Positions 59,787 through 60,062 of a stretch of DNA of 64,000 nucleotides are shown here, piece after piece. Below the pieces are notes generated by a model that worked only from the letters and a program-made list of their open reading frames with translations, was not told where the DNA came from and ran no database searches. The stretch covers positions 36,618 through 100,617 of IMG/VR virus record IMGVR_UViG_3300002052_000634; one strand, written 5' to 3'. This DNA comes from a virus. Position 1 is the first letter of the stretch, and every line of letters begins with the position of its first letter. Made by a program: the position numbers and the translations under genes.

Positions 59787-60062
59787 ATGTCAATCCATCC
59801 GAGTCTAAAAAGTAATAGATGGAAACAGAATAGAAGTGTTCGAAAGAGATGGGAACGTCTTGAAAAATTAAACCGAACTAAAGATTGGATTGAGAAAAAC
59901 GCCACTGCTTACGGACTGCCCAAAGAAAAAATAGATAAAATAATTTTTAAAATTAAAGATGAAAAAAATCACATAGAAAAAAAAGAACCTACAGAAAATC
60001 TTTCTATAACAACTAATAAAAAAGCAAAAAAGAAAAATAAAGATATAACAGGAATTCGTTAA
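59787..60062 (+). CDS. PVC-superphylum signature small basic protein homologue (TIGR04137-like)
   Basis: MSIHPSLK...RSV.KR.ER...L....W.......YGLPK, with AAGGAGG RBS before ATG 59787. Confidence 0.7.
   Translation: MSIHPSLKSNRWKQNRSVRKRWERLEKLNRTKDWIEKNATAYGLPKEKIDKIIFKIKDEKNHIEKKEPTENLSITTNKKAKKKNKDITGIR

Follow-up and report, generated by a model that had tools for sequence, protein, structure and literature searches.

A Diverged Viral Subfamily of the PVC Signature Protein on a Tailed Phage That Most Likely Infects Omnitrophota

Results

A Small Basic Protein Gene in a Phage Replication Region

The stretch of DNA that we analyzed (hereafter the window; 64,000 nucleotides) comprises bases 36618–100617 of a 100,617-bp IMG/VR record, IMGVR_UViG_3300002052_000634, which is flagged as a "provirus" and given a CheckV completeness of 100%. 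On its plus strand, at 59787–60062, lies an intact frame of 91 codons and a stop, whose product we call P0001. The features of the locus, in window coordinates, are listed below.

43749–44540, plus strand: KdsA (Kdo-8-phosphate synthase; PF00793, E = 2e-61)
55330–57675, plus strand: PolB, a family B DNA polymerase (PF00136, E = 2e-35) and the synteny anchor common to the related phages
58274–58305, no strand assigned: G+C-rich, terminator-like palindromic hairpin of 14 bp, just 5' of the promoter
58329–58357, plus strand: sigma-70-type promoter matching the consensus (TTGACA, 17 nt, TG-TATAAT; 12 of 12)
58396–59418, plus strand: metallophosphoesterase with an N-terminal HTH, first gene of the putative operon (phrog_221, E = 6e-29)
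59390–59815, plus strand: 141-aa ORF with no family match, whose end overlaps the start of the P0001 gene by 29 nt
59774–59780, plus strand: Shine–Dalgarno sequence AAGGAGG, read from the sequence, 6 nt 5' of the ATG at 59787
59787–60062 (stop included), plus strand: P0001 gene, encoding a small basic protein of 91 aa (translation; TIGR04137, E = 7.8e-11)
59787–59936, plus strand: conserved N-terminal domain, residues 1–50, homologous to TIGR04137/CT421.2
59937–60059, plus strand: Lys/Glu-rich C-terminal tail ending in KKNKDITGIR, by alignment a variant of the phage-clade motif KKxSKDVGKIK
60063–61193, plus strand: N-terminal half of a Rad50/SbcC-like ATPase (AAA_23, E = 5e-10; SMC_N), 1 nt after the P0001 stop
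61559–62518, plus strand: Mre11/SbcD-like metallophosphoesterase (Metallophos_2, E = 2e-12)
62714–63328, plus strand: C-terminal half of a Rad50/SbcC-like ATPase (C-terminal part of SMC_N)

The P0001 gene thus follows PolB at a distance of about 2.1 kb, with the 141-aa ORF on one side and the Rad50-like ATPase on the other. This ATPase is seemingly split into halves of 376 aa and 204 aa, with two small ORFs, the Mre11/SbcD-like gene and a 78-aa ORF between them (60063–63328). Upstream, the hairpin and the perfect promoter (58274–58357) look like the boundary of a transcription unit within the replication block.

The program-made list of open reading frames opens the P0001 frame at a TTG at 59760, which gives a product of 100 aa. 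However, in all 222 family sequences compared, a methionine stands at the position of the ATG at 59787, and it is followed by a serine at position 2 (86–97%) and a histidine at position 4 (96–97%). Because every compared member begins with a methionine there, we take the ATG at 59787, rather than the TTG, to be the true start. The initial annotation, made from the sequence without database searches, had likewise noted a strong ribosome binding site and a frame called too early, and the peptide that it quoted is present exactly at these positions. With this start, the protein has a pI of 10.29, with 27 Lys and Arg against 12 Asp and Glu, and a net charge of +8 in its first 50 residues. The gene is probably co-transcribed with its neighbors from the host-type promoter at 58329–58357, and, since it lies in a replication and recombination block behind a consensus promoter of this type, its product is probably made early.

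P0001 Belongs to the TIGR04137 Family

The same annotation had recognized in this protein the pattern of the small basic protein characteristic of PVC bacteria. A search with TIGR04137 (NCBIfam "small basic protein", short name Chlam_Ver_rRNA) was significant (E = 7.8e-11, 41.7 bits), and the match spanned positions 1–49 of the 50 in the profile and residues 1–49 of the protein, beginning at residue 1. The curated NCBIfam cut-off of this hypothetical-equivalog model is 50 bits, so that P0001 is a homologue, and not an equivalog, by NCBI's rule. The relatives of P0001 on other phage contigs scored 36.9–53.2 bits, with only two of them, L005 (53.2) and L091 (50.4), above the cut-off, and the cellular copies of Omnitrophota scored 68.5–76.5 bits.

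When 1.84 billion cluster representatives were searched exhaustively with HMMER, with P0001 and P0002 as queries, 245 proteins were retrieved at E ≤ 1e-3, all of which share the same N-terminal pattern. Aligned with hhalign, the phage-type profile and the Omnitrophota cell profile matched with a probability of 99.6% (E = 1.6e-24). Furthermore, P0001 keeps all 14 of the near-invariant residues (M1, S2, H4, S6, L7, R16, V18, R21, E23, R24, L28, L44, P45 and K46), each of which is 86–100% conserved in the phage clade and in the other sequences alike. Both types are strongly basic, the cell copies with a pI of 9.8–10.3 and the phage copies with a pI of 10.2–10.7. By these comparisons, the homology of P0001 to the TIGR04137 family is secure. 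One trait of the family, that of a single-copy chromosomal gene confined to PVC bacteria, does not extend to P0001, which is encoded on a phage record.

Other resources returned little. Pfam gave nothing for P0001 but a chance-level match to AntA (E = 0.11), it matched no PHROGs family, and sequence-profile searches of the PDB, ribosome chains included, gave chance matches only (E > 0.1). A word-index protein search returned only P0002 for the full protein and nothing for its N-terminal 50 residues, which reflects the limits of the method and not an absence of relatives. Scores in an ESM Atlas search were below 0.9, too low to be informative.

[quoted passage not shown] Our literature search found no paper on TIGR04137 or on a viral copy of the PVC signature protein, and a tblastn search of 50,697 GenBank phage records gave no match to P0001. 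The expectation of the initial annotation that a viral copy would be unusual was therefore borne out in the phage records, the PHROGs families and the papers searched.

The Carrier Is a Tailed Phage

Virion and tail genes and a replication module lie together on this one contiguous record, as in a tailed phage (Caudoviricetes). An upstream block on the minus strand encodes a tape measure protein (phrog_991, E = 3e-21) together with baseplate-wedge, virion structural and tail-fibre-like proteins, and the plus-strand block encodes RuvB-like, 5'–3' exonuclease, PrimPol, RecA, PolB, metallophosphoesterase and Mre11/Rad50-like proteins. The GC content is 26–30% throughout and about 28% overall. Among the window's own replication and recombination genes are those of the RuvB-like ATPase (29267–30355), the PrimPol with a PriCT domain (46192–48072) and RecA (50588–51667).

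No terminase, portal or major capsid protein was identified with PHROGs among the ORFs tried, and four of the large minus-strand ORFs outside the window (616, 555, 412 and 393 aa; bases 1–36617 of the record, G000:C1) had no PHROG match. As these four ORFs match no PHROG, the structural module appears to be very divergent from those of described phages. A host-like island at 40296–45194 encodes a trypsin-like protease, a peptide deformylase, a 150-aa ORF, a BT1/MFS transporter, KdsA and ClpP; because homologues of several of its genes recur on two related contigs (L088 and L089), the island is a conserved part of the phage group.

Four contigs, of up to 109,280 bp, encode the identical P0001 sequence, and the record itself is its parent contig with about 8.7 kb trimmed off. 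The carrier is a tailed phage of about 100–110 kb that most likely infects Omnitrophota.

The Gene Is Kept by Related Phages

A scan of IMG/VR with the single P0001 sequence found nothing, and an alignment of its closest matches was needed to reach three homologues, on L004 (54.6 kb), L005 (20.6 kb) and L006 (101.6 kb). These contigs have a GC content of 27–28% and a PolB that is 54–59% identical to that of the window. The genes around PolB are homologous to and collinear with those of the window, and a few genes downstream of PolB the small protein has its homologue. In L006, a homologue of the metallophosphoesterase (69% identical) is found in the same place. On the other hand, the genes that directly flank the small gene on the three contigs have no detectable similarity to its neighbors in the window. 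The PolB homologues of L005 (1428 aa; L005:1868–6154) and L006 (1066 aa; L006:4227–7427) are longer than the 781-aa PolB of the window, and only about 362 residues of the L005 homologue align in the best segment; the extra length may be due to an intein or other insertions.

A scan of JGI metagenomes with the subgroup whose tails end in KKxSKDVGKIK added four contigs, L088–L091, with a GC content of 27–29%. Three of these (L088, L089 and L091) encode several homologues of ORFs of the window phage, including the protease, Def-region, KdsA and ClpP genes, whereas L090 is only 1.2 kb long and has just the small gene in common with it. In this subgroup, the small gene is placed elsewhere than near PolB, and in L088 it directly follows ClpP. 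Because its position differs between the two phage subgroups, no fixed functional neighbor backs any one mechanism. The closest cluster representatives (P0003–P0006) lie on contigs of 109,895, 109,022, 78,347 and 152,529 bp.

Pairwise dN/dS values among the eight phage genes were 0.10–0.60 in the 27 pairs, of 28, for which they could be computed, but as dS is saturated, values below 1 are weak evidence here. Since related phages carry the gene too, it is a kept viral gene and not an accident. Judged from these sequences, P0001 represents a conserved, diverged viral subfamily that is present on at least eight phage-like contigs and is not a single recent pick-up.

Phage-Type and Cell-Type Copies Are Distinct

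We compared 222 sequences (151 from the HMMER search plus the copies from the fetched loci) in a tree of their first 62 residues. In this tree, a 39-tip clade (SH-aLRT 78) brings together the eight copies in phage context and 31 metagenomic proteins that have no known genomic context, and includes none of the 70 copies from named Omnitrophota MAGs. IQ-TREE, run on 111 rows, again separated these 39 from the rest, by a weakly supported branch (UFBoot 47, SH-aLRT 81); among them, a core of 16 that includes the window copy and those of L004–L006 received a UFBoot of 95 and an SH-aLRT of 94. The monophyly of all 39 phage-type sequences on only 62 columns is weakly to moderately supported (UFBoot 47, SH-aLRT 78–81).

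Two substitutions and the tail set the phage type apart. At position 19, 82% of the phage clade have Arg and 91% of the other sequences have Leu. The clade is uniform at position 47 (Glu in 100%), which is Val or Ile elsewhere; P0001 has both R19 and E47. Conversely, W34 is 94% conserved elsewhere but only 41% conserved in the phage clade, although P0001 retains it. Many members of the clade end in KKxSKDVGKIK or a variant, such as the KKNKDITGIR of P0001.

The two types also differ in where they occur. The tail motif combined with a TIGR04137-type family was not found in 185,579 prokaryote species, sampled with one genome each, and 2.9 million IMG/VR contigs yielded no cell-type copy. Of 401 genomes that sampled the Omnitrophota phylum, 382 encode the family, with a single match in all but one. 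No phage-type copy was present among the 401, the best match to the phage profile scoring 78 bits over the N-terminal part only. A second copy in one genome (G140), considered as a prophage copy, was rejected, as it proved to be a pair of contig-end fragments.

In 40 Omnitrophota loci, a SPOR-domain gene lies upstream on the same strand in 38, and aroB (3-dehydroquinate synthase) lies downstream in 32, with a gene for a tRNA_bind-domain protein between the small gene and aroB in 15. No Rfam RNA was found within about 4 kb of the cellular gene in 18 Omnitrophota loci. These surroundings give no ribosomal or rRNA linkage in Omnitrophota, despite the short name Chlam_Ver_rRNA. Taken together, we infer that the gene was probably captured once, long ago, from an Omnitrophota-like host and was then inherited vertically in the phages, where it diverged under selection.

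The Small Protein and KdsA Point to an Omnitrophota Host

A scan of species-representative genomes for the cell-type motif pattern yielded 109 confirmed loci, almost all of them in records titled Candidatus Omnitrophota. Many cell-type copies (L007, L010, L013 and others) lie in MAGs titled "uncultured Planctomycetia", and one (L080, DATJEK010000013.1) comes from a MAG under the title "Candidatus Eisenbacteria"; the taxonomy given in such record titles looks unreliable. The "Planctomycetia" loci are probably from Omnitrophota, because one MAG so titled (G002) falls in the phylum sample of the Omnitrophota MAG G001.

The first named sequences to branch next to the phage clade in the tree are two Omnitrophota copies (L081 and L061), followed by a 104-tip group that contains 63 named Omnitrophota copies. 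Support along this path is uneven (9, 86, 28 and 82), and a position nested within Omnitrophota is relative to these named loci alone, which were fetched with a pattern biased to one motif.

KdsA gives a second line of evidence. When the phage KdsA was searched against a collection of 5.8 billion proteins, all 14 organism-named sequences among the best 120 of 7,970 matches were from Candidatus Omnitrophota or Omnitrophica, at 56–63% identity. A few better matches among the same best 120 (62–67%) include P0156, which is encoded on a 54,640-bp contig, equal in length to the phage record L004. In 251 Omnitrophota genomes, the best KdsA proteins were 56–60% identical to that of the phage, and most were 45–52% identical. 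The presence of KdsA implies a host that makes Kdo for its lipopolysaccharide.

An Omnitrophota host is therefore supported by the small protein and, independently, by KdsA, in agreement with the initial proposal of a PVC host, possibly Omnitrophota, that would fit kdsA: this phylum is the source of every organism-named KdsA match among the best 120 and of the closest cellular sequences to the small protein that carry a name. The GC content of the phage (28%) counts against this assignment, as it is lower than that of every sampled Omnitrophota locus (34–63%). To our knowledge, there is no cultured phage–host system for Omnitrophota, and almost no phages of the phylum are known.

The Predicted Structure Is Extended

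An AlphaFold2 model of P0001, built with 144 homologues, was extended, with a mean pLDDT of 72.8. Residues 1–20 form an extended segment (pLDDT of about 80), short helices are predicted at residues 21–31, 33–36 and 56–65, and the tail is disordered. Neither Foldseek against the PDB nor VIA-align against 48,161 chains found a fold match for this model, a result that says little because the model is non-globular. The extended, basic and invariant N-terminus suggests that the core of P0001 probably becomes ordered only on a nucleic acid or on a partner in a large complex.

Discussion

The gene at 59787–60062 brings a protein known as a signature of PVC bacteria into the genome of a phage. We put a probability of about 0.7 on the reading that it is a real gene, that its product belongs to a viral subfamily of the PVC signature protein, that the phage infects Omnitrophota, and that the product is an early protein that binds nucleic acid.

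Could such a protein serve the phage by standing in for the host's own copy? The cellular protein reportedly binds nucleic acids, as Lagkouvardos et al. (2014) are said to have observed by gel retardation. P0001 would be made early from the replication and recombination block and would bind nucleic acid through its basic N-terminal core, as the cellular protein does. In the infected cell, it might then replace the host's abundant copy on its partner, or compete with it, and the altered residues R19 and E47, together with the tail, would give the resulting complex properties that serve the phage. The partner would be either the nucleoid or DNA on the one hand, or the ribosome or RNA on the other. 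Competition with the host copy is drawn by analogy. We regard this specific sequence of events, in which P0001 acts early, its core binds the type of partner that the host protein binds, and its altered residues and tail change the behavior of the complex, as tentative and somewhat less probable than an even chance. Its extension to the whole clade of Omnitrophota phages, as a takeover factor whose viral variant displaces the host protein from an essential partner early in infection, is more speculative still.

Several other explanations bear on the same evidence. P0001 might act on the phage's own DNA, as a host-derived, HU- or histone-like accessory for replication, recombination or genome compaction. 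The gene does lie within the replication and recombination block, with the Rad50/Mre11-like genes starting 1 nt after its stop, the copies on L004–L006 follow PolB, and the very high pI of the phage copies would suit such a role. Yet the immediate neighbors are not conserved, as the flanks of the gene on L004–L006 are dissimilar and the L088 copy follows ClpP, and the retention of every near-invariant core residue suggests the same partner as in cells, so that we consider this explanation possible but on the whole unlikely. Less probable again is a role on the ribosome or rRNA, in which P0001, as a viral protein of ribosomal type, would bias translation, as has been proposed for phage bS21; this would be a special case of our main reading, set apart by the partner alone. 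A tiny, very basic protein whose N-terminus is invariant from Met1 and whose model is extended and non-globular, as is typical of proteins that fold on RNA, would fit the ribosome, and so would a near-universal single-copy gene in the phylum, the NCBIfam short name and the peptide deformylase that the phage also encodes. CT421.2 is, in addition, among the highly expressed transcripts of C. trachomatis (PMC5541142). Against this stand the searches of PDB chains, ribosome structures included, which gave neither a sequence match nor a fold match, and the cellular gene's surroundings, with SPOR-domain and aroB genes instead of ribosomal genes as neighbors in the 40 Omnitrophota loci and no rRNA or tRNA within about 4 kb in 18 of them.

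Two further explanations would deprive the gene of a role in the phage altogether. Were it the host's own copy on cellular DNA, in a provirus flank or a mis-binned fragment, the "provirus" label of IMG/VR and the host-like KdsA, Def, ClpP and transporter genes of the record would be accounted for. This idea is largely refuted, because the gene sits about 4 kb inside the record with phage replication genes on both sides and a uniform GC content of 26–30%, lacks the SPOR/aroB neighborhood, has homologues that recur on other phage-like contigs, and belongs to a diverged clade that was not found among the 401 Omnitrophota genomes. Nor does a decaying, functionless passenger fit well, and we hold it to be largely excluded. 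The TIGR04137 score below those of the cell copies and the relaxed W34 are what decay would produce, but the frame is intact behind a strong ribosome binding site, the 14 near-invariant residues persist in phage copies that share only 44–71% identity with each other, E47 is fixed throughout the clade (100%), and the phage copies have acquired a conserved tail motif.

Compared with the cellular CT421.2 family, P0001 has the same architecture, a 50-residue N-terminal domain from Met1 in a small, very basic protein with a variable, low-complexity tail. It differs in being encoded by a phage, in having R19 and E47 where cells have Leu and Val or Ile, in lacking the SPOR/aroB neighborhood typical of Omnitrophota cell copies, and in its tail, as the tails of the phage type are rich in Lys and Glu with a conserved end motif, whereas those of Omnitrophota cells are rich in Ala, Pro and Lys. 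Phages with diverged copies of small host housekeeping proteins are a known theme, and what is new here is a viral subfamily of a known PVC family. One such case is reportedly the phage-encoded ribosomal protein bS21 described by Mizuno et al. (2019). Like P0001, phage bS21 is a diverged copy of a small, basic, abundant and lineage-typical host protein, and a possible clue to the host, but we found no relationship between the two in sequence or fold. Another is TF1 of phage SPO1, a histone-like, HU-type DNA-binding protein. Proteins of this type share with P0001 their small size, basic charge, host ancestry and place in an early or replication region, with a nucleic-acid binding that is probable for P0001; however, their fold family is unrelated, as the AlphaFold2 model of P0001 is extended with three short helices and has no dimeric HU fold.

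The finding has a bearing on the use of the family as a marker. CT421.2/TIGR04137 has been proposed as a PVC-only marker and as a metagenome probe for PVC organisms. Because a diverged viral subfamily exists, screens with this marker would also catch phages; of the 222 sequences in our tree, 39 fall in the clade with the phage copies. At the same time, the small protein links large uncultured phages of Omnitrophota to their host by sequence, and the phage KdsA gives this link independent support.

A host housekeeping gene is seldom retained by a phage to which it brings no benefit. That this gene has been both retained and remodeled, with two substitutions and a new tail motif, suggests that phages gain by interfering where the cellular protein acts. 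The remodeled residues mark which ones to mutate in order to learn the role of the cellular protein, and, if the viral variant does take over the place of the host protein, the phage protein would lend itself as a probe of what the PVC signature protein does in the cell.
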